From Eledone cirrhosa (Eukaryota): a DNA stretch of 64,000 nt. The notes below the pieces were generated by a model that did not search any database, had not been told where the DNA came from, and worked only from the letters and a program-made list of their open reading frames with translations. A program made the translations under genes and the position numbers. The stretch covers positions 191,766,001 to 191,830,000 of the forward strand of contig OZ024743.1 in NCBI GenBank assembly GCA_964016885.1. The letters run 5' to 3'. This document shows positions 4,050-64,000 of this stretch, in pieces. Numbering within the stretch: the first letter of the stretch is position 1; each line of letters starts with the position of its first letter.

Positions 4050-4054
<5 letters not shown>

Positions 4055-7000
4055 AATTAAGTTAAAAATGTACATCTACATATGCATACTGAAATACTAG
4101 TGTGTATATGAATACACACACGTATACATATGTAGGTGTAACAAGTCTTTCACTGGTTGCTTTACTGTGAGCAGCCCAGCTATTCTGTATGTAAACACAC
4201 AGACAAACCGGTTTTTAGAGTCATACTGGTTTTCGGGGGAACACCTTCCCTCTATTCTCCAGAAAGCCAGACAAGGAATATTGAACTAGTTTCGTTGTTG
4301 TTACAACTCATCAGCAATATTTACCTATCTACCGGCCCTTCTGGTGAATTGTAAAAGCACATATCGTTATATGCTTTTTCTATGAAAATTGTTTAAGCGT
4401 CAGTCATACAAAAGTGAGTTACAAACGAAACGAAATTTAATTTCGTTTCGTTATTCGTTTTTATCGTCTCCGCTGAACCGGTGCGTACTCACACTCTATG
4501 CAAATTAGTCTGCCCACTACTACTTTTCATAGAAAAAGCATATAACGATATGTGCTTTTACAATTCTCCAGAAGGGCCGGTAGATAGGTAAATATTGCTG
4601 ATGAGTTGTAACAACAACGAAACTAGTTCAATATTCCTTGTCTGGCTTTCTGGAGAATAGAGGGAAGGTGTTCCCCCGAAAACCAGTATGACTCTAAAAA
4701 CCGGTTTGTCTGTGTGTTTACATACAGAATAGCTGGGCTGCTCACAGTGAAGCAACCAGTGAAAGACTTGTTACACCTACATATGTATACGTGTGTGTAT
4801 TCATATACACACTAGTATTTCAGTATGCATATGTAGATGTACATTTTTAACTTAATTGTTTAAGCGTCAGTCATACAAAAGTGAGTTACAAACGAAACGA
4901 AATTTAATTTCGTTTCGTTATTCGTTTTTATCGTCTCCGCTGAACCGGTGCGTACTCACACTCTATGCAAATTAGTCTGCCCACTACTAATTTTCATAGA
5001 AAAAGCATATAACGATATGTGCTTTTACAATTCTCCAGAAGGGCCGGTAGATAGGTAAATATTGCTGATGAGTTGTAACAACAACGAAACTAGTTCAATA
5101 TTCCTTGTCTGGCTTTCTAGAGAATAGAGGGAAGGTGTTCCCCCGAAAACCAGTATGACTCTAAAAACCGGTTTGTCTGTGTGTTTACATACAGAATAGC
5201 TGGGCTGCTCACAGTAAAGCAACCAGTGAAAGACTTGTTACACCTACATATGTATACGTGTGTGTATTCATATACACACTAGTATTTCAGTATGCATATG
5301 TAGATGTACATTTTTAACTTAATTGTTTAAGCGTCAGTCATACAAAAGTGAGTTACAAACGAAACGAAATTTAATTTCGTTTCGTTATTCGTTTTTATCG
5401 TCTCCGCTGAACCGGTGCGTACTCACACTCTATGCAAATTAGTCTGCCCACTACTAATTTTCATAGAAAAAGCATATAACGATATGTGCTTTTACAATTC
5501 TCCAGAAGGGCCGGTAGATAGGTAAATATTGCTGATGAGTTGTAACAACAACGAAACTAGTTCAATATTCCTTGTCTGGCTTTCTGGAGAATAGAGGCAA
5601 GGTGTTCCCCCGAAAACCAGTATGACTCTAAAAACCGGTTTGTCTGTGTGTTTACATACAGAATAGCTGGGCTGCTCACAGTAAAGCAACCAGTGAAAGA
5701 CTTGTTACACCTACATATGTATACGTGTGTGTATTCATATACACACTAGTATTTCAGTATGCATATGTAGATGTACATTTTTAACTTAATTGTTTAAGCG
5801 TCAGTCATACAAAAGTGAGTTACAAACTAAACGAAATTTAATTTCGTTTCGTTATTCGTTTTTATCGTCTCCGCTGAACCGGTGCGTACTCACACTCTAT
5901 GCAAATTAGTCTGCCCACTACTAATTTTCATAGAAAAAGCATATAACGATATGTGCTTTTACAATTCTCCAGAAGGGCCGGTAGATAGGTAAATATTGCT
6001 GATGAGTTGTAACAACAACGAAACTAGTTCAACATTCCTTGTCTGGCTTTCTAGAGAATAGAGGGAAGGTGTTCCCCCGAAAACCAGTATGACTCTAAAA
6101 ACCGGTTTGTCTGTGTGTTTACATACAGAATAGCTGGGCTGCTCACAGTAAAGCAACCAGTGAAAGACTTGTTACACCTACATATGTATACGTGTGTGTA
6201 TTCATATACACACTAGTATTTCAGTATGCATATGTAGATGTACATTTTTAACTTAATTGTTTAAGCGTCAGTCATACAAAAGTGAGTTACAAACGAAACG
6301 AAATTTAATTTCGTTTCGTTATTCGTTTTTATCGTCTCCGCTGAACCGGTGCGTACTCACACTCTATGCAAATTAGTCTGCCCACTACTAATTTTCATAG
6401 AAAAAGCATATAACGATATGTGCTTTTACAATTCTCCAGAAGGGCCGGTAGATAGGTAAATATTGCTGATGAGTTGTAACAACAACGAAACTAGTTCAAT
6501 ATTCCTTGTCTGGCTTTCTGGAGAATAGAGGGAAGGTGTTCCCCCGAAAACCAGTATGACTCTAAAAACCGGTTTGTCTGTGTGTTTACATACAGAATAG
6601 CTGGGCTGCTCACAGTAAAGCAACCAGTGAAAGACTTGTTACACCTACATATGTATACGTGTGTGTATTCATATACACACTAGTATTTCAGTATGCATAT
6701 TAAGATGTACATTTTTAACTTAATTGTTTAAGCGTCAGTCATACAAAAGTGAGTTACAAACGAAACGAAATTTAATTTCGTTTCGTTATTCGTTTTTATC
6801 GTCTCCGCTGAACCGGTGCGTACTCACACTCTATGCAAATTAGTCTGCCCACTACTAATTTTCATAGAAAAAGCATATAACGATATGTGCTTTTACAATT
6901 CTCCAGAAGGGCCGGTAGATAGGTAAATATTGCTGATGAGTTGTAACAACAACGAAACTAGTTCAATATTCCTTGTCTGGCTTTCTGGAGAATAGAGGGA

Positions 7001-7259
7001 AGGTGTTCCCCCGAAAACCAGTATGACTCTAAAAACCGGTTTGTCTGTGTGTTTACATACAGAATAGCTGGGCTGCTCACAGTAAAGCAACCAGTGAAAG
7101 ACTTGTTACACCTACATATGTATACGTGTGTGTATTCATATACACACTAGTATTTCAGTATGCATATGTAGATGTACATTTTTAACTTAATTGTTTAAGC
7201 GTCAGTCATACAAAAGTGAGTTACAAACGAAACGAAATTTAATTTCGTTTCGTTATTCG

Positions 7260-7266
<7 letters not shown>
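4050..7266 (+). mobile_element. Family A: HHR tandem array (retrozyme-like); 467-bp unit x about 6.2 direct (4387-7266) preceded by an inverted partial unit (4050-4390); flanked by (TA)n
   Basis: Exact 467-bp period, few substitutions between units, one HHR per unit, (TA)n at 4010-4050 and 7265-7324. Confidence 0.9.
4591..4635 (+). ncRNA. Type I minimal hammerhead ribozyme, family A (also at 5058, 5525, 5992, 6459, 6926; inverted copy 4277-4321)
   Basis: AATATTG-CTGATGA-GTTG(taacaa)CAAC-GAAAC-TA-GTT^CAATATT: stem I AATATTG/CAATATT, 4-bp stem II, palindromic AACTAGTT stem III. Confidence 0.88.
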
Positions 7267-9486: not shown

Positions 9487-9532
<46 letters not shown>

Positions 9533-9540
<8 letters not shown>

Positions 9541-9648
9541 CAACAGATTAAAGTTTAATAAATATTTGCTCTACGGTTCTTATATATTTGATATATATTT
9601 ATCCTTATCAAGTCCTCTTTGGATTTTAGTCTTCAAATTTATTATTAT

Positions 9649-9652
<4 letters not shown>
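9533..9652. mobile_element. Mini-insertion of the Naiad-type PLE (inverted 3'-end fragment plus 5' tail) in (TA)n
   Basis: 9533-9557 matches 38126-38150 directly; 9558-9652 is the reverse complement of 38035-38127. Confidence 0.85.
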
Positions 9653-9730
<78 letters not shown>

Positions 9731-9734
<4 letters not shown>

Positions 9735-11462
9735 ATAAATGCTCTGAAATAGCGATATATATGTGAATATAGACATAGAATATTCGAAAATATTCTGTAT
9801 GTTTATAATAAACATTTTGAAGACCTAATCGCTATAGAATAGAATACGTCACGTATTACAATTAGATTCTCGATAAAAGCAAGGGAAGTAATCTACGCGT
9901 TTCATTCTCGTTAGAAATCATCAGGACTACATATCCAGTGCTTTTATCGAGAATGACACAGCTAGAGACTTATAGAATACTTAGCTGTGTACAGGAACTG
10001 GTTTGAAAGAGCGGTTGCCGGTCCGGCAGAAATTAGAAATTGGAATAAATGCTCTGAAATAGCGATATATATGTGAATATAGACATAGAATATTCGAAAA
10101 TATTCTGTATGTTTATAATAAACATTTTGAAGACCTAATCGCTATAGAATAGAATACGTCACGTATTACAATTAGATTCTCGATAAAAGCAAGGGAAGTA
10201 ATCTACGCGTTTCATTCTCGTTAGAAATCATCAGGACTACATATCCAGTGCTTTTATCGAGAATGACACAGCTAGAGACTTATAGTTCCTGTACACAGTT
10301 CCTGTACACAGCTAAGTATTCTATAAGTCTCTAGCTGTGTCATTCTCGATAAAAGCACTGGATATGTAGTCCTGATGATTTCTAACGAGAATGAAACGCG
10401 TAGATTACTTCCCTTGCTTTTATCGAGAATCTAAATGTAATACGTGACGTATTCTATTCTATAGCGATTAGGTCTTCAAAATGTTTATTATAAACATACA
10501 GAATATTTTCGAATATTCTATGTCTATATTCACATATATATCGCTATTTCAGAGCATTTATTCCAATTTCTAATTTCTGCCGGACCGGCAACCGCTCTTT
10601 CAAACCAGTTCCTGTACACAGCTAAGTATTCTATAAGTCTCTAGCTGTGTCATTCTCGATAAAAGCACTGGATATGTAGTCCTGATGATTTCTAACGAGA
10701 ATGAAACGCGTAGATTACTTCCCTTGCTTTTATCGAGAATCTAATTGTAATACGTGACGTATTCTATTCTATAGCGATTAGGTCTTCAAAATGTTTATTA
10801 TAAACATACAGAATATTTTCGAATATTCTATGTCTATATTCACATATATATCGCTATTTCAGAGCATTTATTCCAATTTCTAATTTCTGCCGGACCGGCA
10901 ACCGCTCTTTCAAACCAGTTCCTGTACACAGCTAAGTATTCTATAAGTCTCTAGCTGTGTCATTCTCGATAAAAGCACTGGATATGTAGTCCTGATGATT
11001 TCTAACGAGAATGAAACGCGTAGATTACTTCCCTTGCTTTTATCGAGAATCTAATTGTAATACGTGACGTATTCTATTCTATAGCGATTAGGTCTTCAAA
11101 ATGTTTATTATAAACATACAGAATATTTTCGAATATTCTATGTCTATATTCACATATATATCGCTATTTCAGAGCATTTATTCCAATTTCTAATTTCTGC
11201 CGGACCGGCAACCGCTCTTTCAAACCAGTTCCTGTACACAGCTAAGTATTCTATAAGTCTCTAGCTGTGTCATTCTCGATAAAAGCACTGGATATGTAGT
11301 CCTGATGATTTCTAACGAGAATGAAACGCGTAGATTACTTCCCTTGCTTTTATCGAGAATCTAATTGTAATACGTGACGTATTCTATTCTATAGCGATTA
11401 GGTCTTCAAAATGTTTATTATAAACATACAGAATATTTTCGAATATTCTATGTCTATATTCA
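9731..11462 (+). mobile_element. Family B: HHR tandem array; 310-bp unit, inverted arm 9731-10284 (about 1.8 units) and direct arm 10285-11462 (about 3.8 units); flanked by (TA)n
   Basis: Units start at 10298, 10608, 10918, 11228; near-identical; one HHR each. Confidence 0.9.
10366..10408 (+). ncRNA. Type I minimal hammerhead ribozyme, family B (also 10676, 10986, 11296; inverted 9888-9930 and 10198-10240)
   Basis: GTAGTC-CTGATGA-tTTCT(aacg)AGAAt-GAAAC-GC-GTA^GATTAC; palindromic ACGCGT; outer 16-bp stem ATTCTCGATAAAAGCA/TGCTTTTATCGAGAAT. Confidence 0.9.
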
Positions 11463-27778: not shown

Positions 27779-30399
27779 TTCCAATCAGTTCCGCCTGTTT
27801 TGCAGGAGGGAATTAGAAAATGCATATTTCTGCATGCAATTTTAAAACCACACAACACGTATTTTGAATATTAGCAAAGCGATTTCTAGCAAATGGAATT
27901 CATTTTATGGCCATTTGGAAGAAATATTGCTGTGAGGTTTTTCCTTTTTGCTTGTTTATTTTGTTAGATTCTTTATTTTGTATTAGATCATTATTGCTTC
28001 AGTTAGTTTTGCTATAAAACTGTTTTAGTTGGCTAGATTTCCTTTTAGATTTATTGGACGGTTGTTCCCCTACCACCTTTGCTTTCATCTCTTTATGCCA
28101 TTGCATTTAGTTGGCCCAGTACACCAGCCTGATAAGAGCAGTAAAAATGTTAATCCCTCTACAGCTCTGAGGTACTTAACTGCAAATTTTGGACGTTAAT
28201 CTGATGGATATGTTTCTGTCTATCTAGGATAAAATTTCTAATTGAGCAGATGCCTATTCCCTATAGCTAAACTATGAAATGTAATTATTCGATGAACAAC
28301 GATATTCCACAATGGATTTGAACTCAATACCTTTGAGGTAGTAGTCAAATACCATAACATTTTCAACTACTTTGCATCTCTTATAATCGGTATATATACA
28401 CACCCTAAATTAGTCTCAATATACCGTAGTAGTCAATATGAATACTGTTTTGTTAAACAAGTCTTTCATCCAAATGCTTTTAACGTGTTCCGTATGAGCT
28501 GTTAGAAATGACAGAAATTGATTTTTGTGTAGACTATACCTGTATATTCAGTAAAGCTTTCATCAATAGGATCACCAAGAGAAAATTATGATTCAATGAT
28601 TGATCCATATCCCGTTTTTTATTTATTTTTGTTTGTTATTTACTCAATTCTCATTCGATTTGCTTGTAAATTTGTGATTAACAATCCCAAGATAATAAAA
28701 TAATAATTTTGTCCAAGCACAATGCTTCACATGTACAAAACAGAAGAAATGAGATTTATATCTGGAGAGCTCATTTACAATAATAAGGAAACATAAAATA
28801 TAAAATAGAAGAGATCGTCTGTGATCAGACCTGGAGAGGAATGGGCTCAGCCAGGTTTTAAATGACCAAGCATGACACTAAGGTGCGTTTACGACTCTAC
28901 TTGGTGTTACGTGAGTTATATAGCAATACATGCGCACAGTTTATTTGTCAGTCAAATAGCCAAAAAGCTATGTTTTTTTCTTGAATGTAATCTAGTGTCT
29001 GCTAGTACCGTTCCGTAACCTCTCTGCTATTCTGATCAAGTAGGACTGAATGAAATAGGCAATGGGTCAAACCAGTGAGTGTGATACACGTATGTTTCAC
29101 TCTAGATATATTATTCATCTGCCTTATCGAGTGTGATGCGGGAATCTGGGCAAGGTAGATAGCGCCAGCAACCACCTTTAAAATTCATAGGTAAAGGCTT
29201 TCAAATGTAAAAATATTGTATATCATTCGATATACAAACTTTACATACATGTATGCATACAGCTATGCCGTAGCGAACACCTTAATTCTGTTTCTTCTTC
29301 AGGCTGAACCAGCCTAAAAGCTACGTATGCAAATGAGGCTAATAAGCCTATATACATAGGCGTTAAGACTATGTTTGCGGCTTATTAAAATAAGCCGCAA
29401 ACATATAGTTTGAGGCGAGGTAAGAGTGCGTAAACTTCACAGCAGCCACACAGCCAGAAACAGCTGTCAGTTGCTTTCCCCTACTTGCTTCTGCTGGAAT
29501 AAGATAAGTGGACCCAGCCAACACCTTTAAAATAAATAGCTAAAGGCATATCAAATATTATTCAATATACAAACTTTACATGCATGTGTGTATGCAGCTG
29601 TGTTGGAGCGACACCTTAATTCTATTTCTTATATATATATATGTGTGTGGTTTTAGCGAGTGCGTGTTGTATAGTGTGCGGGTGTATATATAACAATACA
29701 CACATGTGGGGGGGGGGTCAGCCTGTCTGTCACAGGTCCCTTTGTGGTGGGAAATTAAAAAAAAAACAGAGCATCAGAGTATCAGTGATGGCTCTCAAAC
29801 AGGAACTTCTGGAAAATATGTGAATAAGTAATTTGTTCTCTCTTATTTTGTGGTGTGTGGGGGTGATTACATATTTAATTTGGCGTTAAATGTGTTAATA
29901 AATAGTTTTTCTTTATTTATTCTTTGCTGTTGAGTGAAGAAAAAAAAGAAAAACAGACCCTAAAATATATTTTCCGTGCTATTTCCAACTTCACCTTTTC
30001 CCTATATCCACTGTTTTGTATAGAACCTTACTTCCCTTTTCTAATATATATATATATATATACAGAGGTATCCACAGTAAGTTGTGGGGTCTATTCTGCA
30101 TGAAGAACTCGATGTAATCCATATGTTGAAAATTTTGTAGGTTAAGATAAATCCCGGAAAACAATTAAACATTAAAAGGAAAACAGAGTCATGATATAAG
30201 TTAAAACAATGAAATAAAATATCAAGTCATTAGAGATATACTTCACTGCTTTACGATCGTTCCTAGGTGATGATAATACATTGTAGCTATACTCAGTAAT
30301 TGATCTATGTAAGGTTAGTTACAAAATATCAGATAAAGAGAATATTTACTTACATGCATATCACCAGCTGTTTTCAAAACAGCTGGTGATATGCATGTG

Positions 30400-30548: not shown

Positions 30549-33161
30549 TGTCTGTGTGTGTGTGTCTGTGTCTGTGTGTGTGTGTGTGTATGGCATCGTG
30601 AGGTAAAGACCAGGACGGAGCGAGAAAAAATGGAATAGAGGAAGTGAAATGGCAGTGTAGCGCGCGCAGCCGGAAGGAGTGGTCAAGTCGAAAGAGTGGA
30701 AGAAGAGGGTGTTGACAGCAGGACATGTTTGTGAGAGGGAAGGGAGGAGGTAGTGCCCACAAAACAAAACAAGGAGGGAGAGAGCGATTGTGGCTACTAT
30801 GTGAGTGAGGGTTAGTTGGCTGTGTGTATACAGGCAGGTGTGTGTGGACAGAGGATGAGAGTAGCGTGTATATATGCATGTGTGTATGGAGGCATGTGTT
30901 TGTGTGTGTATAAAGCGTAGTGGTCATGCGAGGAGATATCGTCGGTGTGTGTGTGATAGACGCTGTGTATCGTTTTTTTTAATGGCTACATACACGTATG
31001 TAAGTGAATATACTGGTGTGTTTCAGGGTGTATGTGTGCGTGTGTGTGTTTCAGGGTGTGTGTGTGTGTGTGTTTCAGGGTGTAAGAGTGTGTGTCGTGT
31101 TTCAGGGTGCAAATGTGTGTCTGTGTGTGTGTGTTTCAGGGTGTGTGTGTGTGTGTGTTTCAGGGTGTAAATGTGTGTGTGAGGGCGTAAGTGTGTGTGT
31201 GTGTGTGTTTCAGGATGTAAGTGTGTGTGTGTGTGTGTGTTTCAGGGTGTAAGTGTGTGTGTGTGGTGTGTTTCAGGGTGTAAGTGTGTGTGTGTGTGGT
31301 GTGTGTTTCAGGGTGTAAGTGTGTGTGTGTGTTTCAGGGTGTAAGTGTGTGTGTGTGTGCTGTGTTTCAGGGTATAAGTGTGTGTGTGTGTGTGTGTGTG
31401 GTGTGTTTCAGGGTGTAAGTGCGTGATTGTTTTTGTAGTGTACGGAGGGAAATAACTAAACCAAGGTTGGGGTTCGAGACGTGCAGGGAGGAGTTAGTGA
31501 ATTAGAGGGGGACGGGTGGGAGAGAAAGAGGGGTGTTTGGATCTTTGAAATTAGTGCAGTTAGTGGTAGGTGGGGGTTATTAGTAGGTCAGTGTGGAGGT
31601 GAAGGAATACAGGAAGGTGCGAGTGGGTGGTGATGTGGGGCAGAGGGTAGTGTGTTAGTGAAGGGGTGGGTCAGTGGGTAGACGGTATGATGAGGGCAAA
31701 GGGTGTGTGTACGTTGTTGAGTGTGGATATGCGGAGTAGTGTAGTGGTGGTAGGTGTGGGTGGGAGGTTGAAGACAAGCGGAAGTGGAGTAGGTAGGTTT
31801 GTGAAGTTAGTGGTAGGTAGGGGTGGGCGTGGTCGGTGGTGGATTAGTGGTATCAGTCGTGAGGGGGCTAAAGGAAGAAAGTGTGGGGTTCAAACAGTTG
31901 GTGGTCCATGTCTGAATTCAGAAAATCGTCTGTTGCTCGGCGCTCAGTCGAGCATCTCGGGTTCCGGAGCACGCAATCAGGCTGCTGACGGTCATGTTGC
32001 GAGCGGAATGACCGGCTGAGCAGAAGTGTAGGGCGATGGGGGAACGCGTGCCGAGGCGGATGTCGTGGAGGTGCTCAGCGAACCGATCGGCCAAACGGCG
32101 GCCCGTCTGTCCGACATCAGTCGCACTGCACTGGGTGCAGCGGAGTCCGTAGATGAGGCTGGAGGAGGTGCAGCGAAAGGAGTGCCGGACAAGGAGGGAG
32201 TGGCCGTTGGGCCCCTGGAAGGTAGTGGTGTAAGTGATATGGGGGCATGTGTGGCAGCGGAATTGGGAGCAGGGGAGGGACACGGGGGAGGAAGAGTGGC
32301 TAAGAGGTAGGGAGCTACGGACGAGGAGGTTCCAGTGGTTGCGTGCGTGCTTGAAGGGGGGGGAGGGTTCGAGTCGGAAGACGAGGGATGTGGAGGAGTC
32401 TGACTGGAGGCGACGGAAGGGGCGTAGGAGAGTCCGTTGGGGGTAGGGTGGCAGGGTTGTAGGTGAGAAGGAAAGGCAGATGCTGGGTGTGGGGGCGAGG
32501 GTGTGGGGTGACGGTAGTGGTGCCGTGGACGGCGCAGGCGCGAGTGTAACAGCGTGGATAAGGGAGGAGGGGTAACCTCTCCGGGCGAAATGACGGACCA
32601 GAGAAAGGGTCTGGGTTTCAAAGAAGTTGGTAGTAGAGAATGGAGTGTTTGGTGGAAGTGGGATGGAGGGAGGTAAAATCGAGGTAGGAGTACGAGCAAG
32701 TACGTTTGAAGAAGGCGGAGGTGATGAGTGAGCGGTGGGAGAGGTCAATGGTGACGAAGATGTCCAAGAAGTGGTGGAGATGGAGGTGGTGAGTGAAGTT
32801 GAGGGAGGGATGGAAGGAGCAAAGGAATGAGAGAAAAGAGTCGAGATGCTCCTGGGTGAGAGTCGTGGCACCGATGCAGTCATCAATATAATGCCCGTAT
32901 AGTTCGGGAGTGGGGCTAGTGTATTGGGCAAAAATCTAGGCCTCAATGTGGCCAACGAATAGGTTGGTGTAGTGGGGCCCATTATTGTACCCATGGCTAC
33001 CCCGGTGACTTGCTGATAAAATTTACCCTAGAAGGAGAAGCAGTTGAGGGTGTGAACTAGCTCGGCGAGACGAAGGGGAGTGGAGGTGGAGGGGACGGGG
33101 AGGGACGATGGTCAATGTAGTGTTGGAGGGCGCGTAGGCCGTCAGTGTAGTGGATGGACGG
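30400..33161 (-). mobile_element. Degenerate GC-rich Penelope-like element (RT motifs at about 32850-33060, GIY-YIG to about 31900) with microsatellite-rich 3' region
   Basis: QVTGVAMGTIMGP, HYIDDC, ARRGYP, CSQFRCHTC, LIYGLRCTQC..VGQTGRRLADRFAEH; frameshifts; 5' end abuts TA at 33162. Left boundary uncertain. Confidence 0.85.
31015..31422. repeat. Minisatellite GTTTCAGGGTGT(AA)(GT)n, about 13 units
   Basis: Direct read. Confidence 0.9.
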
Positions 33162-33180
33162 TATATATTTATATATATAC

Positions 33181-33604
33181 AAATGAAAGTACAGCATAAT
33201 CGAAGCTCTGGCTGCAGCTAAGCTAACGAATGCAATCGGAATGTGCAGCTAAGCACTCAATAAGGTATTTTACCTTAGAGTGATGACATTACGTTTAGAC
33301 AGCTTTGCAAATTGAAGACAGCGACCAATAAGCCAGCCGCAGTGAGCAAAGCAACGAGAAAACTGACTCAGGAAAATATGACAAACGCGATCGTCCAGGT
33401 TTGTCATATTTTCCTGAGTCAGTTTTCTCGTTGCTTTGGTCACTGCGGCTGGCTTATTGGTCGCTGTCTTCAATTTGCAAAGCTGTCTAAACGTAATGTC
33501 ATCACTCTAAGGTAAAATACCTTATTGAGTGCTTAGCTGCACATTCCGATTGCATTCGTTAGCTTAGCTGCAGCCAGAGCTTCGATTATGCTGTACTTCC
33601 ATTT
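33181..33604. repeat. Fold-back element: 206-bp inverted arms, 12-nt spacer, in (TA)n
   Basis: 33181-33386 is the reverse complement of 33399-33604, with 2 mismatches seen. Confidence 0.95.
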
Positions 33605-34733
33605 ATATATATATATATATACAAATGGAATTTGTATATATATATATATATATATTTCCTCTTGTGACTTACGCATGTGCGTTTACTAACTTCTGCGTCA
33701 CTCACAAAATTGGTTACAGAGCAAAATTACCTGTTGATAACGTGATATTCCTTATTCGATCTTTATGCTGAAAGCTTATAGTTTTAAGCAGACAGTATTA
33801 TTGATTTAGGTGTCATAGAAACCCTACATTTGGATTTTACCACCAATTCCATTTGGCTCCAGGTCGGTTTTTATCATTTATTTTGTTTGACCTGTTTAGC
33901 TTGATTTGTTTTTTGGCTTAGGTGGTTAATGCCTTCTTAATTTAATATGGATTACCTTCGTGAAGATGAAAATATTAAGTCTTACTTCTCATGTTTGCAA
34001 ATATGATTTTATATATTAAATATACTTTAATATTAATCTAGATATCTATAAACCTTTATAGCCTGAAATATTATACATTTTGATTAATTCATTATTCTGA
34101 ACTAACATAAATAAATGATTTGAAATTTAGCGTTCAGCCGGATACGTTTGGATATATATAGTGTATATAATTAATTGTTAGTATATTTCTAATTAACTAA
34201 GAACTCGAAATTTACACCCAGATATATTTAATATTTAGATTGATGGATACCTCTAGATAATTCAATAATTCAAAAATTCGAGTTTACTCCTTCACAAAGC
34301 TATGCCTAAATGAATATTCATGTGTTTGTATAGATATATATAATTTTTGCATTATCTAATCACACCCTATTCATCCACGACAATACAAACCTCCCTCCCT
34401 GTGCTTTATACTATAAAAACTATTACTCCTTGTCTCTCTATCCTTGATCAATTCTCTTTTGCTTTCTATACTTCTAGTAACTATATTTTCTCCTCATCTG
34501 TTTCTCTCTGTCTTTCTTCTTTCTTCAATAATTTAAATTATTTGAATCTCTAACAGTTATGTAAATTGCTATTATGTATTTTTAAGCTTTCTCACACGCA
34601 CCCTCTGTATTATATGTAAATTTTTTCATGTCTCAATCTTAAGGTATATAAATATTGAGTGTTGTCATATCTTATTCACTACCGTGACTGAATCTTAACC
34701 ATCTACTATGTCAGCGTATGTCATGCATCATCT

Positions 34734-34820: not shown

Positions 34821-34868
<48 letters not shown>

Positions 34869-35864
34869 TAAAATAACGGATTAAAGTTTAAGCAAAGAAT
34901 CGCTGCTTTCACACTTAACGGGATCTTCTGAAACTAACAAAGTCAATCTGTAAACGCAGACCTGGATATTTCAAAAAACGTTGCAACCGGAGGAAGACAG
35001 AAAGACGATACTTTGGTTCGTGGTAACGTTCGCTGGCAAAGAACGGGAAAAAACGAATAATACGTCATTAATAGGAGCGGTGAAAAACAATTACGCGCAA
35101 AGACAGAACCACGTTTATGGTATAAAAGAGGTCGTAGACTAATGTTCTCTTAGGTGGTGCATAGAGACGTTCTCTGGCAATGAACGAAAAAACGAAGATA
35201 ATAAGTCATATGTGGAGCGTAGAGAACAATAGTACGCAAAGACAAAACCACGTAAATGGTATAGCAGAAGTCGTAGACTAAATTCTAACTAGGAGACCAA
35301 ATGAATCTCCGCTACAGAGTTAAGAACAAAGTAAATAAATACAATACAGAAGTAATAGAAACAAATAAATACATACACGCAAACAGATACGTACATACAC
35401 AAGCATACGCAAAACTTTACCATAGGTATACAAAACCACGCACATATAAATATGTGTGTGTGTGTATGCTTGTGTACAAATAAATAAATAATTATATAAA
35501 CGTATATAAGTAAATAAATACGTATATAACAAGCGCACACGCATACCTACATATAAATACACGAATGCTCGGAGACGTAAGTCAACTAAAACAAGAAGTA
35601 CACATATACACACACCCACCATACGTACGAACCTGCATACTCACGCAGACGCAAAACTCCCGTATACACATAGCCAAACCCTAAATACCAGAATATGTAA
35701 AAATTATACGCCATAACAGTCAAATATACGTACGAGAAGGTATACATACCTTCACAAAACATACGGGTTATATATACTTACCTATGCAAATAAGTAAAGG
35801 AATAAACAAACAAATACTTAGCTCCCACATCAAGACGTAAAATATCCACGTATAGATCGTGCTA

Positions 35865-37991
35865 TCAGTTAGGGTATAACGTGGGGCTGTAATACAGGAA
35901 AGTTTTGTGCAATTTATGTTTACAAGCCGAAATTGCCTCAGATTTTTTGTTTAAGATGTGGTCTGTGGCGTAGAGTATTTCCAGGGCCTCAGCGGCGCAG
36001 AGGTCACATGGTCTTTTATTTCCGTTATACGATCTAGCCCTAGCTAGGATCTCCCAGTGTAACTTATATTTGGTGTGGTTGTCTTTTAGACTCCAGATAT
36101 AAGCTGAAAGTGACGTCATATTCCTTCTTAGAGGGTAACGAAAAGAATGGGTATGCATGTAAAGACGCTGCTTGAAACTATTGGCGGTTAACCCTATGTA
36201 GGCCCTACGGGACGTGGGTGTTACAACCTTACATTTGTAGACAATGTTACTAGAGAGGCATTTCCCGGATAGGGGGAAATCAGCCCGATTCCTACAATTA
36301 CAGTTAGTACTAACTACAGGGTTGCACGTGTTCCTACGGCTAGGTAGTTTAGCTAAATTTGAAGCTGTGATGTTATGTGCAAGGTTAGGAGTCGTAGAGT
36401 AAGAGATTTTAATAGTATTTCTATTAAAAATGTTACTATCTTTATGTGTAGGGGGAAAATGTTTCGTAATAAGGGAAAGAAAGATCTTAGCTAATGGTGT
36501 GGCCACCTCCATATTATATGGTGGGTTAAACCAACAAATGCGACGGGATCTATTTCTTCTAGGTCTATTTTCGTACTCTGTATATACTACCTTATCGACA
36601 AATCCACTTCGAGCAAGAGCTTCATTGAAATAAGTGGAATGGTCGTTGAAAATGCGCTCGTTGGTGGAAAGACGGGAAAGCCTCAACGAAACGTTTCTTA
36701 CCAGGTTCTTGGTTATGCTGGCAGGATGGTTGGAATGCTTACTTATGTAATTAAGCGTATCATTCGGCTTTCTATACGGGTAATACAACCCATTCAATAA
36801 ATTGAGGGTAACGTCGAGGTAATTAACGACCGAGAGATTGGCCTCAACCTGTATAGAGAGGTTGAAGCCTTTAAAGAAGGCTGTGAGTTCTTTTCTGAAC
36901 CTGTCGCAAGCACGAGGTCCGCACTTAGTCATGGTCAAAAGACCATCGTCACGGTACAAACCACCGCCTGCGTTGGGGAGTTCGTCCTTGATAGAGAAAA
37001 GAAGGAAAAGGCCAATAAGATCAGTAACCTCCGCAGAGTCACTGGCGCCCATACTCACGTCGAATGGGGTACTATTGGATTTTTTAATCCAAATAGAGTC
37101 GTCGAAATTAATCACCAACTTTCGGGCATTAAGAATGACATCAACTTCAAAATCCTTAACCACTGTGAGTGTTTTAGCGAAATTGATAGCTCTAAGGAGA
37201 AGTGGTAAAGTGATGGAGGAGTAGTAATTGTTGATGTCGAATTGGATAAAACGGCAATGTTCCTTGTTACATATGCCGTTGAACCAATCAATCACCGCGA
37301 AAGAATTGTTCCACAGTGCGAGAGGGGCCAAACTTCTAATTTCAGGTATAATTCTATCAAGAATCGTTTTACTAAGTCTACCTAAATCGGACTTCGTAGG
37401 GTTAATAAGCCGAATAGAGGGGTTGTTCGGAAAATTGGATTTGTGATCCTTCAGGGTAAAGTGGGGAGAGATAGGGTCCAGAGGTTCGGTCCGGTCCAGG
37501 ATGTTGAGATCGGATGTGATTTTAAACCCAGCATCGTTGATTTCATTGATGACGCACCGATTAGTTTTACGGTAATCCTTAGTTACAGCATTATGTAGTA
37601 GTTGATGGTAAGTACTGCGCTCCACTTGATATAGGTTGCCAGTTTTGTCGGAATGGACGTGCACGGCGTTAGAATCCTTAATAGAACGAGTTCTATTCTT
37701 CAGGTCTTGCTGGAAGGAATTGCTCCTATTCCGAAATTTGATATTCCGAATGAGTTCCAAAACATCATTTTCGAAGGGTAGCAATGCTGGGTTCCACGGA
37801 GGGTTATTATAAGTTTTAAATCCAAATTTATCCTGTTTGTTGTCTGCTTTTCGCGGATTATCGAAATAAAAGGCACGCCAACGCAACCTTTTAATGAACG
37901 CGTCTGTTTTCTGTATCAGGAGTTTTAGGTATGTTTTCCTGCTTGGTACGGGTATGTTCTTTGTAGAAATATTCAGATGTTGTTTCTGCAT
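35865..37991 (-). CDS. PLE reverse transcriptase plus C-terminal GIY-YIG endonuclease, 708 aa
   Basis: STKNIPVPS..KRLRWRA N-terminus, DKTGN, RLINP, QFDINNYY, MGASDSAE, LYRDDGL, NYLDV, CNC..PLSGKC, IVYKC..YIGLT, CDLC, NKKSE. Confidence 0.93.
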   Translation of the reverse strand: MQKQHLNISTKNIPVPSRKTYLKLLIQKTDAFIKRLRWRAFYFDNPRKADNKQDKFGFKTYNNPPWNPALLPFENDVLELIRNIKFRNRSNSFQQDLKNRTRSIKDSNAVHVHSDKTGNLYQVERSTYHQLLHNAVTKDYRKTNRCVINEINDAGFKITSDLNILDRTEPLDPISPHFTLKDHKSNFPNNPSIRLINPTKSDLGRLSKTILDRIIPEIRSLAPLALWNNSFAVIDWFNGICNKEHCRFIQFDINNYYSSITLPLLLRAINFAKTLTVVKDFEVDVILNARKLVINFDDSIWIKKSNSTPFDVSMGASDSAEVTDLIGLFLLFSIKDELPNAGGGLYRDDGLLTMTKCGPRACDRFRKELTAFFKGFNLSIQVEANLSVVNYLDVTLNLLNGLYYPYRKPNDTLNYISKHSNHPASITKNLVRNVSLRLSRLSTNERIFNDHSTYFNEALARSGFVDKVVYTEYENRPRRNRSRRICWFNPPYNMEVATPLAKIFLSLITKHFPPTHKDSNIFNRNTIKISYSTTPNLAHNITASNLAKLPSRRNTCNPVVSTNCNCRNRADFPLSGKCLSSNIVYKCKVVTPTSRRAYIGLTANSFKQRLYMHTHSFRYPLRRNMTSLSAYIWSLKDNHTKYKLHWEILARARSYNGNKRPCDLCAAEALEILYATDHILNKKSEAISACKHKLHKTFLYYSPTLYPN

Positions 37992-38144
37992 GATGAATAT
38001 AAGTCAGTAGAGTGCTCAACCGAAGGAGCCAAATAGTAATAATAATAAAATTGAAGACTAAAATCCAAAGAGGGCTCGATAAGGAAAATATATATCAAAT
38101 ATATAAGAACCGTAGAGCAAATATTTATTAAAATAACAGATTAA

Positions 38145-38195
38145 AGTTTAAGCAAAGAATCGCTGCTTTCACCCTTAACGGGATCTTCTGAAACT
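38145..38195 (-). ncRNA. Hammerhead-like motif with variant core in the pLTR (second copy 34885-34935)
   Basis: Minus strand: AGTTT-CAGAAGA-tCCC(gttaa)GGGt-GAAAGCAG(cgattct)TTGCTT^AAACT, with distal CAGATT/AATCTG pairing. Confidence 0.6.
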
Positions 38196-38334
38196 AACAA
38201 AGTCAATCTGTAAACGCAGAACTGGATATTTCAAAAAACGTTGCAACCGGAGGAAGACAGGAAGACGATACTTTGGTTCGTGGTAACGTTCGCTGGCAAA
38301 GAACGGGAAAAAAAAAAATATATATATATATATA

Positions 38335-41946: not shown

Positions 41947-41957
41947 TATATATATAT

Positions 41958-42110
41958 AGTAATAATAATAAATGTGAAGACTAAAATCCAAAGAGGGCTC
42001 GATAAGGATAAATATATATCAAATATATAAGAACCCTAGAGCAAATACAGAAGATCTCGTTAAGGGTGAAAGCAGCGATTCTTTACTTAAACTTTAATAT
42101 GTTATAAATA
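41958..42110. mobile_element. Second mini-insertion of the Naiad-type PLE (tail plus inverted 3' end) in (TA)n
   Basis: 41958-42047 matches 38035-38123; 42048-42110 is the reverse complement of about 38123-38190. Confidence 0.85.
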
Positions 42111-42156
42111 TATATATATATATTTAAAGGAATAGAGGTGTAACACACAAGTTATG

Positions 42157-42369
42157 ATATATTGGTAAACGGAAAAGAAAATGCTGACAAATTGTTCACA
42201 GTGAAAAATAGTTTAATTAGGAATAAGTGAGAATTAGTAATAGTATTGGTTAGTATTCAGTTTTGGTTTTAAAACTGAATACTAACCAATACTATTACTA
42301 ATTCTCACTTATTCCTAATTAAACTATTTTTCACTGTGAACAATTTGTCAGCATTTTCTTTTCCGTTTA

Positions 42370-42378
<9 letters not shown>
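42157..42378. repeat. Perfect fold-back: 108-bp arms, 6-nt spacer, next to (TA)n
   Basis: 42157-42264 is the reverse complement of 42271-42378. Confidence 0.95.
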
Positions 42379-53570: not shown

Positions 53571-54696
53571 CTTATATATAAATGAAAGTTCTTGATTCTG
53601 TGTATCCACCTAAAACTCAAAAATTATCGATCGGTCTCCCACAAATTTACATATATATATTCACTACATCACGAGACAAATAGTCGTAATAGTTGGTTTA
53701 CTTTACAGAGCTTTGAGCAATAAGGAATCGGACAATACTTGCATAACAGAAGGAGTGGCAATGGCTCTTGGTTGGGGTTTCAGACAAACTCTGGCAGTAA
53801 TTTCTCGGGGGGACCCGAGCAGATCAGGTTAATGCCTGCATGTGTTGGTGAGTTTGCTATCCAGCTACTCAAATTGCAAAATGGACTTCTTGAAAAGGAT
53901 TCCAAAGACCGGATTCCGTTGTTATTTGCTCATATAATTAAACTGGAATAGGAACTGATTAACAGAATATTTCCAAACATTCAGATCAGACAATGTGATC
54001 CCAAATGACTGTGAACGAGTAATCTTAACACTGAAAATTGTTGCTGTGAAAGAAACCAACAGAAAGTTACTGGATATGTTATCAGGAGAGGAAAAATGCT
54101 ACAAATCAGTTGACACAGTCATTTCCCAGGACCAGGTTGTAAACTATCCAACTGAAGATTTGAACAGCCACAAACTGGCAGGAATTCCTACACACACACT
54201 GAAGCTTGAAGCATCGGTTATGCTATTTCGTAATCTAGATCTTCCAACACTTTGCAATGGTACAAGACTCATCATCAAAAATATGATAGCCAATGTCCTA
54301 GAAGACGCAATCATGTCAGGAAAATTTGCTGGTGACAATTATTTCATTCCCAGAATACCTCTGAGGTCAACTGATTTGCCATTTGAATTTCAAAGGCTTC
54401 AATATCCTATCAAATTCAGTTTTGAGAGCAATCATTGAAAGTCTTTGGGTTGAACCTGACAGATCCTCTCTTTTCACGTGGTCAGCTTTATGTTGGTAGA
54501 ACAATGTTGTTTATCCAGAGGATTTAGAATATAAAAGTATCTGAACAAGATAATATCGTAATTCCTACTGCAATGATAATAGACATAGATACTAATTCCT
54601 TAGTCATATAGTTTGTAAGGAATTCTGAAGTCCTAACTTTACTGCATAATGTTACTTTGGGAGGATACGCAGACATCCCCAGGTACCTCTGCTATA
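53571..54696 (+). mobile_element. Internally deleted Helitron carrying a PIF1-like helicase C-terminal fragment (about 53950-54500)
   Basis: MLFRNLDLPTLCNGTRL, FIPRIPL..DLPFEFQRLQYPIK, FSRGQLYV; 5' TATATATAAATGAAAG; 3' CAGGTACCTCTGCTA resembling the other Helitron's end. Confidence 0.8.
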
Positions 54697-56321: not shown

Positions 56322-56355
<34 letters not shown>

Positions 56356-59300
56356 GGTGACCTTCGTAGGAAATCGTATCATCGTGAGCTCCGCAAAGGT
56401 TTGTTGTTTTCGTTTGTTTAAAATTGCCATTTATGGAAAATTTTTGTTGTTAACTGTTTATAAAGTCACAAAATTTGCTTTCGAAAAAGGACACTCAAAA
56501 AGATTGGGGCCTTGAGCCCAAAATTTAAACTTTTATAATTATAAAACAAAAATTTTCTTTGAAAAAATCATGGACGATCACAGCTACACTAAGCGGCTGA
56601 GAGCCTTCCTGACAAAATAACACCTCACACCAACACCACCATTGTAAATATTGCTACGTTTGCCAACACTAAAAATATAAGCAGTAGCAATAATTTAAAT
56701 TTGTCTCATGCAGACATTGATTTCCCGCCATTACCAATGACTGCAGATGTTGAAGCCGCCACCCACCACCACCACCACAGCGACAACAAAAACAAAAGAA
56801 AAAATAAATTGTCTCGTGACATCGAAATGGATTCACCCAGAATGGATTCTTCCAAACCGAAAACCACTGACGCCACCACCACCACAACTGAAACTAAAAA
56901 TAACAATAAAAAAATAACAATAACAACAACAGCAACAACAACAATGAGAATAACAACAACACCGTGTCGTTTGCCAAAGAAGCCAAAAAATGCGAAACAA
57001 TCCAGGTAACTTAGGAGGAATTAGATAAAGCCAAGAGAATGGTAAAGAAAGATGGGTTCAGGGTCAGCCTCACCAACACCACAAAAGTCACCAAAAAGCG
57101 AAACAGAAACAGACCCACAACAAACGCAAACGAAACAAAACAACCAAAACGATACACACTACACAGCATTAAATTTGAACAACAACCAACTCTTACACTA
57201 CATCCAACACAACACCAGCATCACAGAAAAAGACTACACAACACCCCAAAAGTTCACACCACCTCCACACATATAAATCACTCGCATCACACAGAAAACG
57301 TACATGACACTGAAACAGAAATTCCCCAAAGACATCGGAGGCTTCCGACAAGCACTCTCCAGGAGGATTTATAAGGACATTCTTCCGGAGGAGGCCACAA
57401 GCAGGGAAAAGGATGGAGAAACCATCCTTCCTCTACGAGAAGTACTGGTAAGTGGTCTTTCCCATCTTTTCCACTCCTTTTCAACATGTCCTCACTCAGA
57501 ATATGCAGCATAAATGCGCGTGGCTTGGGGTCGTCATGGAAGCAGGGCCACTTGCTCAACGACCTCAGGTCACTAAACATGGATGTAGTGGCCATCAGCG
57601 AGACCAGAATCTCCGAAGCACGGGCCTTCGCACCGATCTTCGGCGGCTACGATGTGTACGCATCTCCCAGCCGTCCTGGAATTGGGGGGAGAAGTTGCTG
57701 TGCCTTTTCGGTGAGGTTTGGATCTCGCCATACGGGCCATCATGCTGGACCCAGAAGGTAAATTGGTGGTGCTGGACGTGACCAGCGGAGACGGGCAAGC
57801 TTTCAGGCTAGTGGCCGTCTATGCCCCGACAGGAGCAGGGCGGCCTGATTTCTTCCGGCGTCTGGAGACCTTTCTTGGAATGTCCAGATCTTTAGTGTTA
57901 GTGGGCGACTGGAACGGGATCTTAGATACACGCTGGGACTGTGTGGGATCAGCGGATAAGGGAGGAGAGCCTCACCAACCTGCTCAGGCGTTTTGAACTG
58001 TCTGACAGGTACCGATTGGATTTCCCGAATGTGCCAATGTGGACTTGGACAAACCGCATCGGGTCATCCAGATCATATCTAGATAAAGTATTTTGTAGAG
58101 AAATAGATAGGTCTAGCATAGGCTGTCCACAATTCAAGATAGTCAGCTAGATCTGTGTGCTTGACTTAGATAGGCTTCATAGACGAGGACCCGGCTACTG
58201 GAAGCTAAACGCGTCCTTACCAGCGCGCAAAGCCTACAGAGACCGGATTAGAGAACTAGTTAAGCGGGCGTTGAAGGGGGCCATCGTCAACAACAAGTGG
58301 TGGTTTGCTCTGAAAAGAGCAATTAGAATAGAGTCCATCAGGTTTAGTAAGGCTTTAGCAATAGAGAAAAATAGAGCAGAGGGAGAATTAGTTAGAAAAT
58401 TAGACGAGGCGCTTAGCAAAGGCATCGCGACCGACGTACTTGCGGCGAAATTGGCCCTTGACCAATTCTTCAATGCAAAGCACGAAGGCTGCGTTGTCAT
58501 AGCTAGGGTGCGTGCTCTCAGACACGAGATGACGAAAGCCGTTCAATGGGCCCGAGTGTCGGAGGCGCGTCGTGGCAACAAAGCCACGATCCGGTCTTTC
58601 GTGGACCACAGGGCGCATGCTACTCGATCCCGGGCAAATGTGTGAAGCTTTTCAGGGACACTTCGCACAGCTGTTCGGGAGCAGCGGCGGGCCGGATCGA
58701 GGGATGGACTTTAGTGTCTACCTCGACGGACTGCCGCGGCTCTCGGCCACTGAGGCGGAGTGTTGCGAAAAGCCGATACCAGCCGCTGAAGTAAGGGAGG
58801 CAATGACTGGCTGCACAAGGGGTTAATCGCCTGATTTAGATTTTATGCCCTATGAACTTTACGTACAGATGCCAGACTTGTTCGGAGGCCTCTTGGCGGA
58901 CGGCTACTGCAACTGGCAACAGAACGGGAGAATTCCCAGCTCTGTGAGCAGAGGAGCTGTGGCGCTGCTGAGAAAGGATCCGAACAAGGGTGATAACATA
59001 GATAATTTCAGGCCCATAACTCTGCTAAACACAGAGTTCAAGATTTTGGCCAAGGTGCTAGCAAAGAGGTTAGCGCATGTCGTTTGTGGTCTGGTGGGAG
59101 AGGCGCAGACGTGCGCCATTCCTGACAGATCCATCCACGACAACTTCCACCTCATGCGATACATCGTAGAGAGGATAGCTAGGGAACCTGGCACGGGTGG
59201 GACCTTGACCAATTTAGATCAGTCGAAAGCATTCGATAGAGTCGACCATCGTTACCTAGCAGCAGTCCTGAGGGCCGCTGTCTTTGGGCCCGTCTTCAGA

Positions 59301-60742
59301 GGCTGGATCGCTGCCATGCACAGCGACATCTGCTCTGTGGTGAGAGTGAACGGTCACCTTTTGGAACCGTTCAACATCATGCGTTCGGTCCGCGAGGGAT
59401 ATCCCCTCTCGTCCCTCTTGTACGTATTGACTCTCGAGCCATTACTGCACAAACTGGAGACGTTGAGGGATGCAGAAGATCCGTGTCAGCATATGCGGAC
59501 GATGTCACCGTACTGGTGTCGAACGCCAAACACATCGAGGCGATGGGCACTACACTAAGAGAATACGAAGCGGTGACAGGAGCAATGATCAACCAGGAAA
59601 AGTCACATGGGCCTGCAACGCGGCACCTGGAGAGGCATGTCCATGCGGTCCAACAGCGTCGTCGGGCGCTGAACAGACGGACCGGTTAATTTGCTAGGGG
59701 TCTGGTTCGGTCCGGACCTCCAGACGGACAAAAACTGGGACGAGGTGACGAGCAGGGTGGCTTCTCTCACCCAGAAATGGGCGGAGAGGAAGCTATCCCT
59801 GAAAGGTCGAGCGGAGGTGGCTAACGTGTACATCGCGTCTGTCATCTACTACCGCCTGACGTCGTACCTTGTCCTAAGCCTCGCCTGACTGCGCTGGAGC
59901 GTTTGCTCTTTCGCTTTTTGTGGAAGGGACGCGCTCCGATGGTCAGGCGGTCCATCTGCTGTCAACATCCGCTACGTGGAGGGCTGGGCATGCCGTGGCA
60001 TCCCTGGCCTGGCAGTGCTACCGAGGAGCTTTGCCAGTTCCGGATAAACTCTACAGGCATGGAGGTGCCGTCAGCCGGGCATGTCCGAGATGCGCGCAGG
60101 GCGACGAAACCGTCCTGCACGCACTCGTCCAGTGTCCGAGCATTGCTGACTTGTGGGTTTATGTCGAACACCTGCTGTCGCGAGTGGGACGGATCCAGCT
60201 ATCAGCTGAGTCCATCGTGAGGATTGCCCCGCCCTCTTCCTTTAGCCGGGAAGGGCAGGCAGTTTTTATCTGTCTGGTGGCCATGGCGAAGGAGATAGTA
60301 TGGTGGACACGTTTGAAAGGGCTGAAGACGCGCACTTACCTCTTCGGTGATGCCCTGATTAACTTTTTCAAATTTCATTTGAAAAGGAAAATCAGGGTAG
60401 AGAGGGAAGTGCTCTCTTCCCAGCATTTTGTTGAAAGATGGGTGAGAGAAGCAAGTATGGCCCGAGTGAATGGGCCTACTCTGTGTATGTGTCTGTAAAT
60501 TTAAGGTGGAAAACTGGGAGAGGGCACTTGCCCTGGTTGTCAAGATCACTGTGGCCTTTTAATGGGCTTTCTCCACAAATGTCCCTCGGAAGTCTCCCCC
60601 CTATTGGGGAATTTTTCATTGTTTTTTTTATTACATCCTGTTTTTTTTTACACGCAGAAATGCCCATTTGTACCGTCCTGTATTGTCCTGTACTGTCCTT
60701 AATGTCTACTTTATGTAAACCCTTGTGGTTAATAAAGAAAGC
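56356..60742 (+). mobile_element. Tx1/L1-like LINE copy 1 (ORF1 internally deleted; ORF2 APE-RT-CCHC 57486-60498 frameshifted)
   Basis: SINARGL, LVGDWN, RPITLLNTEFKILAK, DQSKAFDRVDH, AYADD, CPRC..ETVLHALVQC; AATAAA then (TTA)n. Confidence 0.92.
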
Positions 60743-60787
60743 ATTATTGTTATTATTAATATTATTATTATTATTATTATTATTATT

Positions 60788-63700: not shown

Positions 63701-64000
63701 TTCATAGACGAGGACCCGGCTACTGGAAGCTAAACGCGTCCTTACCAGCGCGCAAGGCCTACAGAGACTGGATTAGAGAACTAGATAAGCGGGCGTTGAC
63801 GGGGGCCATCGTCAACAAGTGGTGGTTTGCTCTGAAAAGAGCAATTAGAATAGAGTCCATTAGGTTTAGTAAGGCTTTAGCAATAGAGAAAAATAGAGCA
63901 GAGGGAGAATTAGTTGGCGGACGTCTAATGCAACTGGCAAAAGAACGGGAGAATTCCCAGTTCTGTGAGCCGAGGAGCTGTGGCGCTGCTGAGAAAGGAT
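60788..64000 (+). mobile_element. Tx1/L1-like LINE copy 2 (ORF1 with CCHC knuckle about 61155-62951; ORF2 from 62986; runs off the window)
   Basis: 5' end near-identical to copy 1; CVVCGEGTHLRAFC; APE motifs; frameshifts, a stop at 63409 and an approximately 500-bp deletion at about 63915. Confidence 0.92.

Follow-up and report, generated by a model that had tools for sequence, protein, structure and literature searches.

In EN+ Penelope-like elements (PLEs) the standard architecture is one of pLTRs, an inverted and 5′-truncated copy, and an optional tail of 30–40 bp (PMC8557442, PMC3846280). A 5′-inverted copy has been noted for Penelope-13_HM (PMC8557442), and truncated PLEs are described as giving rise to pairs of hammerheads on opposite strands (PMC4209133). 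For a Poseidon element, the PAc protein was seen in vitro to nick AT-rich DNA on both strands and to extend each of them (Frangieh et al. 2024, PMC11167929); reverse transcription starts at two internal sites of the RNA, the spacing of these sites equals the tail, and uncleaved RNA is used. PLE reverse transcriptases (RTs) are the closest relatives of telomerase, and in these sources the choice of the internal start and the making of the tail are open questions (PMC8557442, PMC11167929). Mobilisation of retrozymes by PLEs was proposed in PMC7229834 and is argued in a preprint (bioRxiv 10.64898/2026.07.22.740005), in both cases on the basis of shared ribozymes, co-occurrence and pLTR homology. 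The preprint favours local amplification, and its main text uses neither "tail" nor "junction".

The 64,000-nt stretch of DNA analysed here (the window) contains a full-length PLE, two stub inserts (M1 and M2) and three tandem arrays (A, B and C), as listed in Table 1. Both M1 and M2 come from a Hydra-clade Penelope-like retrotransposon and are dead insertions of very short length, ordinary debris. Both the stub architecture of an inverted arm plus tail and the link of retrozyme arrays to PLEs are mostly known already. The part that we did not find in the literature, and that is worth testing, is a duplicated hairpin that accompanies both end sites of the element across the clade.

Table 1. 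Positions of the parent element, its end sites, the stub inserts and the arrays in the window.
Feature	Position	Strand	Remarks
Array A	4050..7266	+	341-nt inverted arm from X; 6.2 direct 467-nt units ending at Y, 70 nt past X
M1 inverted arm	9528..9558	-	matches 38121-38151, 29/31; last ~31 nt of PLE 3′ end
M1 direct arm	9554..9654	+	matches 38132->38033, 101 nt, 96%, E 8e-40
(TA)n tract common to M1 and array B	9652..9730	.	leads straight into array B
Array B	9729..11461	+	557-nt inverted arm from Y; 3.8 direct 310-nt units ending at X, 35 nt before Y
Array C	15934..17592	+	867-nt inverted arm from Y; 43-nt piece; direct arm ending at X
Full-length Hydra-clade PLE	34861..38313	-	(TA)n flanks; ends at X (34861), 3′ end without tail
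PLE ORF, 708 aa	35865..37991	-	RWR, DKT, YRDD, Cys linker, C-terminal GIY-YIG, CxxC, CxH
End site Y (38033) with its bulged hairpin, the second, C-UUCG-G	38006..38039	-	GCTC 3 nt after Y; E 1.3e-6
End site X (38121) with its bulged hairpin, the first, long-looped	38066..38128	-	GCTC 2 nt after X; E 0.0033
Hammerhead-like motif	38145..38195	-	Hydra format of File S2 of PMC8557442; core CAGAAGA; predicted cut 38150/38149
M2 direct arm	41956..42047	-	matches 38123->38033, 92 nt, 95.7%, E 6e-35; has copy of first hairpin
M2 inverted arm	42048..42115	+	matches 38121-38190, 90%, E 3e-19; contains hammerhead-like motif

Judged from the features of its ORF, the parent element belongs to the Hydra clade and not, as originally predicted, to the Naiads. 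Naiads have an N-terminal endonuclease and a DKA motif, while Hydra elements are described with a C-terminal GIY-YIG lacking CCHH, the motifs RWK and DKT, a CxCX5C linker, CxxC/CxH, a (TA)n target and a 3′ hammerhead (PMC8557442). In the ORF the RT comes first and the endonuclease last (YRDD at residue 346, GIY-YIG at 584–600 of 708), so that GIY-YIG is C-terminal to the RT. DKT stands at 115 and is invariant in alignment A1, where a Naiad would have DKA, and a single Cys lies between the two motifs of the GIY-YIG core in place of a CCHH arrangement with two Cys; the C-terminal GIY-YIG without CCHH is that of Hydra. RWR at 37 takes the place of RWK, and CDLC (662) and CKH (690) represent the CxxC/CxH pair around the conserved E and N. 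The third Cys of the CxCX5C linker is Phe in the window copy, and nearly all reads and contigs have the base giving Cys at this position (36277). Among the best 120 of 510 homologues, RW[KR] is present in 114, DKT in 110 and CxCX5C in 109; by pattern, the order RT, linker, YIG is found in 85 of these 120, and another 24 have the linker and no YIG match after it. A Pfam search with the 708-aa ORF returned 0 families.

The pLTRs of this PLE are 193 nt long (38313–38121 and 35053–34861) and differ at 4 positions. The unit measures 3260 nt and exceeds the length of Hydra elements, which is generally below 3 kb, a soft limit in the source (PMC8557442). The place of the endonuclease, the motifs, the target and the hammerhead format are the same as in the Hydra-clade PLEs described there, and all three window copies, as well as the consensus of loose ends at 38033 and 38121, are inserted in (TA)n. 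Stems I–III of the hammerhead-like motif fit the Hydra format, with the difference that A replaces U at core position 4. This core occurs in all three window copies (38190, 34930, 42048), while most relatives have CTGA; Rfam gave no match for the motif in the window. This ribozyme may be weak or dead, although the family still spread widely. Since it differs from the hammerhead of Hydra-1_Obim, the element belongs to a separate family. The host is an animal and, by a guess from its repeats and from a Hydra family described in Octopus, a cephalopod. Words of the element 34861–38313 are present in 20 sequencing runs from 16 studies with many organism codes. In two of these runs, X5 and X7, which come from other organisms, the matches reach 90–99% or more, which may reflect close relatives of the host or horizontal transfer.

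Self-comparison of the window and local alignments confirmed that each insert joins a tail piece to part of the PLE 3′ end in inverted orientation. The left flank of M1 is the (TA)n tract 9504–9535. Its two arms overlap by 5 nt, and the direct arm comprises the junction and the 88-nt tail, stopping at site Y. Read on the minus strand, M2 runs from (TA)n 42108–42123 through the inverted arm and the direct arm to (TA)n 41947–41958. As anticipated, the tails of both inserts stop at one base, the direct arms both ending at 38033; TA tracts lie on both sides of M1 and of M2, and the tract behind M1 runs into array B. The tail piece had been thought to start just past the 3′/5′ junction, but the direct arms actually begin 3–12 nt before it. 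The inner junctions of M1 and M2 differ, and the two are thus independent insertions. The outer ends of the inverted arms lie near 38121 (site X) and are not base-exact, M1 being possibly 5 nt short and M2 having a short gap there. M1 and M2 therefore show the EN+ PLE architecture at minimal length, with a tail of 88 nt here versus 30–40 nt. They resemble Pen2a_Av, in which the inverted pLTR overlaps the direct one by 15 bp and the tail is likewise optional (PMC3846280, PMC8557442).

The junction geometry of other copies of 38030–38200 was seen in reads and contigs of four runs (X1, the RAD-seq run X22, X5 and X7) aligned to 35045–38320, four of the 24 runs listed and of the 20 with parts of the element. 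Among the loose ends listed, 84 contigs of X1, 525 reads of X22 and 1 contig of X5 end at 38033 (site Y) and pass into (TA)n; for 38121 (site X) these numbers were 109 contigs, 2270 reads and 3 contigs. A contig of X7 begins at 38033. Exact loose ends into TA at both positions, which are spaced 88 nt, were thus present in three of the four runs. The bin covering the tail (38015–38124) was 10- to 18-fold deeper than the neighbouring bin towards the ORF in X1 (1.26M versus 0.07M), X22 (3319 versus 332) and X5 (192 versus 14), and in X7 the values were 9.7 and 0; contig depth is not copy number. The ends at both X and Y together with the deep tail bin indicate that the tail, where present, has a fixed end, that it is optional, and that stubs are common. 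Accordingly, the fixed tail end of the original prediction stands insofar as 38033 recurs in other copies, but it is one of two alternative sites and the tail can be missing.

Read depth drops 2- to 6-fold past 38234. The strand changes in 8 of the 15 joints listed, several of which share one start, and 7 of these 8 have one side at 38187–38195. The commonest position is 38195, with 4 of the listed joints (partners 36446, 38085, 38106 and 38144), while the inner ends of the direct arms in the listed joints spread over 38080–38178 and are not tight at X. The A of an Inr-like TTAGTT falls on 38195; this word, noticed post hoc, has a frequency of 6.4 per kb in the element. In 3 of the 13 relatives inspected (L017, L036 and L049) the upstream pLTR begins 6–11 nt before the hammerhead core. 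We infer that the RNA 5′ end lies near 38195. What looked like a third end site, at 38085/38086, was discarded because a one-base insertion in most reads largely accounts for it. Arms stopping at the hammerhead cut were also rejected as the main rule, 7 of the 8 listed joints lying about 40 nt further 5′; M1 is compatible with such a stop (38146–38151). An exact 21-nt tail pattern had 0 matches in metagenome contigs.

It is extremely unlikely that the inverted structures are artefacts of long-read assembly. The read evidence is that from other copies of the element, in which these ends and the joints between opposite strands were seen again, both in Illumina reads and in contigs of other runs; the arms carry private substitutions, and the relative L036 has the same layout.

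The hairpins at the two end sites share the form GCUC-Y..R-UH-GAGC-ACU. A profile scan of metagenome contigs provided relatives of the element, of which the best 78 of 474 loci were used. In these 78 loci GAGCACT has 122 sense and 9 antisense matches (11.6 ± 3.2 expected), and the sense word was found in 59 of them. Downstream of the hammerheads that are followed by at least 250 nt (n = 54), a copy of the word was found in 43 cases, and two or more in 27. Counted by sequence clusters of the relatives, the motif is present in 45 of 66 and occurs twice or more in 33. The first inner pair is Watson-Crick in 78 of 82 instances (CG 52, TA 26), while shuffled sequences gave a mean of 43.1 and a maximum of 57; for the second and third inner pairs the counts were 50/76 and 34/47, with shuffle maxima of 32 and 23. 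This pairing signal is seen only with a 2-nt bulge, and other bulge sizes give none. In a 60-row alignment (60 of the 81 instances) 21 cells are changed on both sides, versus 7.9 in shuffles. The four GCUC/GAGC pairs are invariant because the instances were selected on them.

A covariance model built without the window gave its best three matches in the 64 kb, in this order, to the hairpin of Y (E 1.3e-6), that of X (0.0033) and the copy in M2 (0.068). Applied to 41 loci mostly outside the training set, it gave 40 matches, 38 of them sense. Folding of the 201-nt hairpin region shows no gain over shuffled sequences (z −0.12), and Rfam has no family for the window hairpin and returned nothing in the 6 of the 78 relative loci scanned. 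In the published consensus of Hydra-1_Ajap two hairpin copies are present, the first of them 2 nt after the start, and that of Hydra-2_Amil has one copy at its end. The duplicated end hairpin is thus present in the consensus sequences of PMC8557442, and we found no mention of it in the sections of that paper that were covered. A literature search, with subscription papers, Repbase notes, supplementary figures and preprint supplements outside its scope, found no description of the hairpin.

Repeat ends in the relatives also lie close to the hairpin: 13 of 20 (from 17 clusters) fall between −2 and 12 nt before GCTC, compared with 9% of random positions. The other 7 lie off the hairpin; several of them are not element ends and were kept in the count. 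Taken together, the duplicated bulged hairpin beside both end sites appears as a candidate signal for the start of reverse transcription. The PLE tail is one hairpin module, and its length of 88 nt, in place of 30–40 nt, is due to a long insert in the loop of the first hairpin. A covarying hairpin of 25–40 nt at both end sites throughout the clade permits a direct mutational test of how the start site is chosen. It also provides a marker for locating Hydra ends and true non-autonomous Hydra derivatives.

Only 1 of the 60 covarying pairs is U-G, and this near absence leaves room for a hairpin at the DNA level or an endonuclease site. In such a case the hairpin would act as DNA (endonuclease recognition or a cDNA signal), or alternatively as a promoter or translation element, and the ends would adjoin it for another reason. 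The scarcity of G-U pairs would agree with a function as DNA, as would the D. virilis tail, which is needed for endonuclease recognition of DNA according to PMC11167929, and the second hairpin copy lies shortly upstream of the start codon, as a translation element might. However, the ends follow whichever copy is used, in many families and within 0–8 nt. Moreover, the hairpin lies outside the tail-less 3′ ends and is therefore absent from the finished junction, which is expected of an anchor on the template side. We regard a role of this kind as unlikely, although it deserves to be taken seriously.

Some observations on the relatives concern their layout. L036:703–937 consists of a TA tract, an inverted arm from before the second hairpin, and a pLTR start 6 nt before the hammerhead. 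L057:790–974 has an inverted 3′ end on its 5′ side, and L020 and L039 are full tandem units.

The stubs are probably products of two-strand priming at (TA)n from two sites that are positioned by the hairpins, and the arrays probably entered in this manner with the help of another PLE. The RT-endonuclease would bind the hairpin and nick both strands of a (TA)n tract; priming of one cDNA at X and of a second at Y would follow, as seen in vitro for the Poseidon element (PMC11167929). Joining of the two cDNAs head to head would produce an inverted arm and a direct arm with a tail. If the hairpins at the RNA 5′ end are used, the template would be exhausted within 75–163 nt at the presumed RNA start (~38195), and run-off near this position would leave stubs such as M1 and M2. 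The system is like that of Poseidon PAc in having two start sites spaced by the tail, an AT-rich target and extension of both strands. It differs in that here a conserved bulged hairpin, in one copy per site, follows just 3′ of each of them in the 5′ UTR. The system described here is known from genomes alone. A Poseidon-type reaction would give M1 and M2 if X served as the start for one strand and Y for the other, close to the RNA 5′ end.

Twin priming of LINE-1 also pairs an inverted 5′ arm with a direct 3′ arm, and the two overlap slightly or leave a small gap where they join. The second priming site of LINE-1 depends on chance complementarity, whereas here it is fixed and marked by a motif.

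Inverted arms could also result from fold-back or self-priming of one cDNA, or from an antisense template, following a model in PMC3846280. The near-perfect palindromes 33164–33621 and 42126–42375, a joint at 38145/38146 and the overlaps of 4–5 nt at the inner junctions of M1 and A would suit such a model. In M1, M2 and A, however, the arms copy mostly adjacent segments and not mirror images, and each arm stops at its own recurrent site against TA. Poseidon, furthermore, nicked and extended both strands in vitro (PMC11167929). Fold-back is therefore quite an improbable source of the inverted arms.

Arrays A, B and C are non-LTR retrozyme-type repeats by their sequence, with self-cleavage and circular RNA only predicted. 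Like animal non-LTR retrozymes, they consist of tandem units (310–468 nt), each with a type I hammerhead core. In array A, Rfam HH9 matched in 7 of 7 places with 34.7–38.6 bits, which is under the gathering score of 52. In B and C an intact core per unit was read from the sequence and aligned to A; for these two arrays no Rfam hammerhead match was listed and a strict hammerhead pattern missed both. The units of C (466–468 nt) are homologous to those of A, and the two sites of C are 61 nt apart. The alignment of A with C scored 220 versus a shuffle maximum of 75, and in it the offset between the two arrays is at most 1 nt for X and 7 nt for Y. The inverted arms of A and C end at one aligned position, 60–75 nt before the ribozyme core and not at the cut site. 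The junctions of A and C fit two interchangeable start sites and run-off at the transcript start, and they come from two homologous events. The score of A with B is borderline (91 versus a shuffle maximum of 83), and common ancestry of B with A and C is therefore only suggested.

Arrays A and B have (TA)n on both sides, and each of the three arrays lies between TA-rich tracts. The stubs had been proposed to reproduce the array layout. This applies to array A, of which they are equivalents with zero full units, the inverted arm starting from X and the direct arm running to Y in both, but not to B and C, in which the roles of the two sites are swapped. The proposed tie of the arrays to a PLE mechanism likewise stands in part: two head-to-head arms, two recurrent end sites and a TA target speak for it, but the arrays show no similarity to this PLE. 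Neither the arrays nor the palindromes scored above shuffles against its non-coding ends, and neither pattern search nor the covariance model at E up to 10 found the end hairpin in A, B or C. The arrays are thus probably products of the PLE type, though not of the Hydra PLE in the window, and their junction geometry adds modest support to the PLE-retrozyme link. Inverted arms, two end sites and TA targeting, all present here, were not found in the parts of PMC7229834 and of bioRxiv 10.64898/2026.07.22.740005 that were covered.

It might be argued that the arrays are cargo of the window Hydra element itself. The stubs and array A are alike in layout, the TA target is common to both, M1 and B share a tract, and a non-autonomous element need not look like its helper. 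Yet the arrays have neither similarity to the non-coding ends of the PLE nor the hairpin found at the ends throughout the clade. Sharing of a tract is expected of any TA-targeting element, M2 sharing one with an unrelated palindrome, and two remnants with a Neptune/Nematis linker are present in the window. A Hydra cargo thus seems distinctly improbable, even more so than fold-back of a cDNA. On the main reading, A, B and C would instead be hammerhead-bearing non-LTR retrozymes whose insertion followed the two-site, two-strand PLE course proposed for the stubs. Since the arrays have their own end signals, the helper would most likely be another TA-targeting PLE clade (Neptune or Naiad). Remnants at 20364–21263 and 31918–33027 (minus strand) have a CX4CxxC linker and a Cys-bearing C-terminal GIY-YIG of the Neptune/Nematis type. 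The clade of these remnants is a candidate for the helper.

In B and in C each of the two arms is longer than one unit, and the arms of B taken together vary in 1 of 310 columns. In array A, units 2 and 4 share a variant at unit position 257. These data bear on the possibility that the arrays entered as short PLE-type insertions and became multimeric in place by unequal crossover (bioRxiv 10.64898/2026.07.22.740005). The variant of A units 2 and 4 would be unexpected from one homogeneous template, but a heterogeneous multimeric transcript also accounts for it. Growth in place would need two expansions per locus to explain the long arms of B and C, and it sits poorly with the near uniformity of B. 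We consider it rather unlikely. A more specific version of the two-site reaction, which we hold tentatively and at somewhat less than an even chance, is that the hairpin sets the RT just upstream of itself, that stubs come from the 5′ hairpin copies, and that the arrays arrived as ready-made multimers from uncleaved transcripts with the signals of another clade. As part of this tentative version, the templates of the arrays would be primary transcripts and not circles made by the ribozyme. The array junctions offer structural support for PLE-driven mobility of retrozymes and may separate arrival of multimers from local growth.

Further details of the arrays were noted. In array C (16801–16844) the 43-nt piece, which ends at Y, abuts the hammerhead core with 124 nt skipped, possibly owing to a template jump. 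Array B has a 13-nt duplication at its inner joint (10284–10311) that starts at an Inr-like CCAGTT. Units of A and C contain the octamer ATGCAAAT (4965 and 17224), and the inverted arms end about 20 nt beyond it; it occurs again at 29327, within the repeat 29150–29630, as a possible internal promoter. Newt satellite 2 has a promoter of the snRNA type.

The palindrome 42126–42375 lies in (TA)n, in the tract shared with M2, and has an extension of about 33 nt on one arm, like a classical PLE tail; alignment revealed no relation to the Hydra ends or the arrays. A second palindrome, of 458 nt (33164–33655), also lies in (TA)n beside a PLE remnant, with a 12-nt unpaired centre and no hammerhead core seen. 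The TA tract that comes next contains a 13-nt mini-palindrome with this same terminus. Elsewhere in the window, 56322–64000, 24761–25773 and 53959–54438 contain what we take to be two related LINE-like copies in partial tandem, an RT fragment and a helicase-like fragment.
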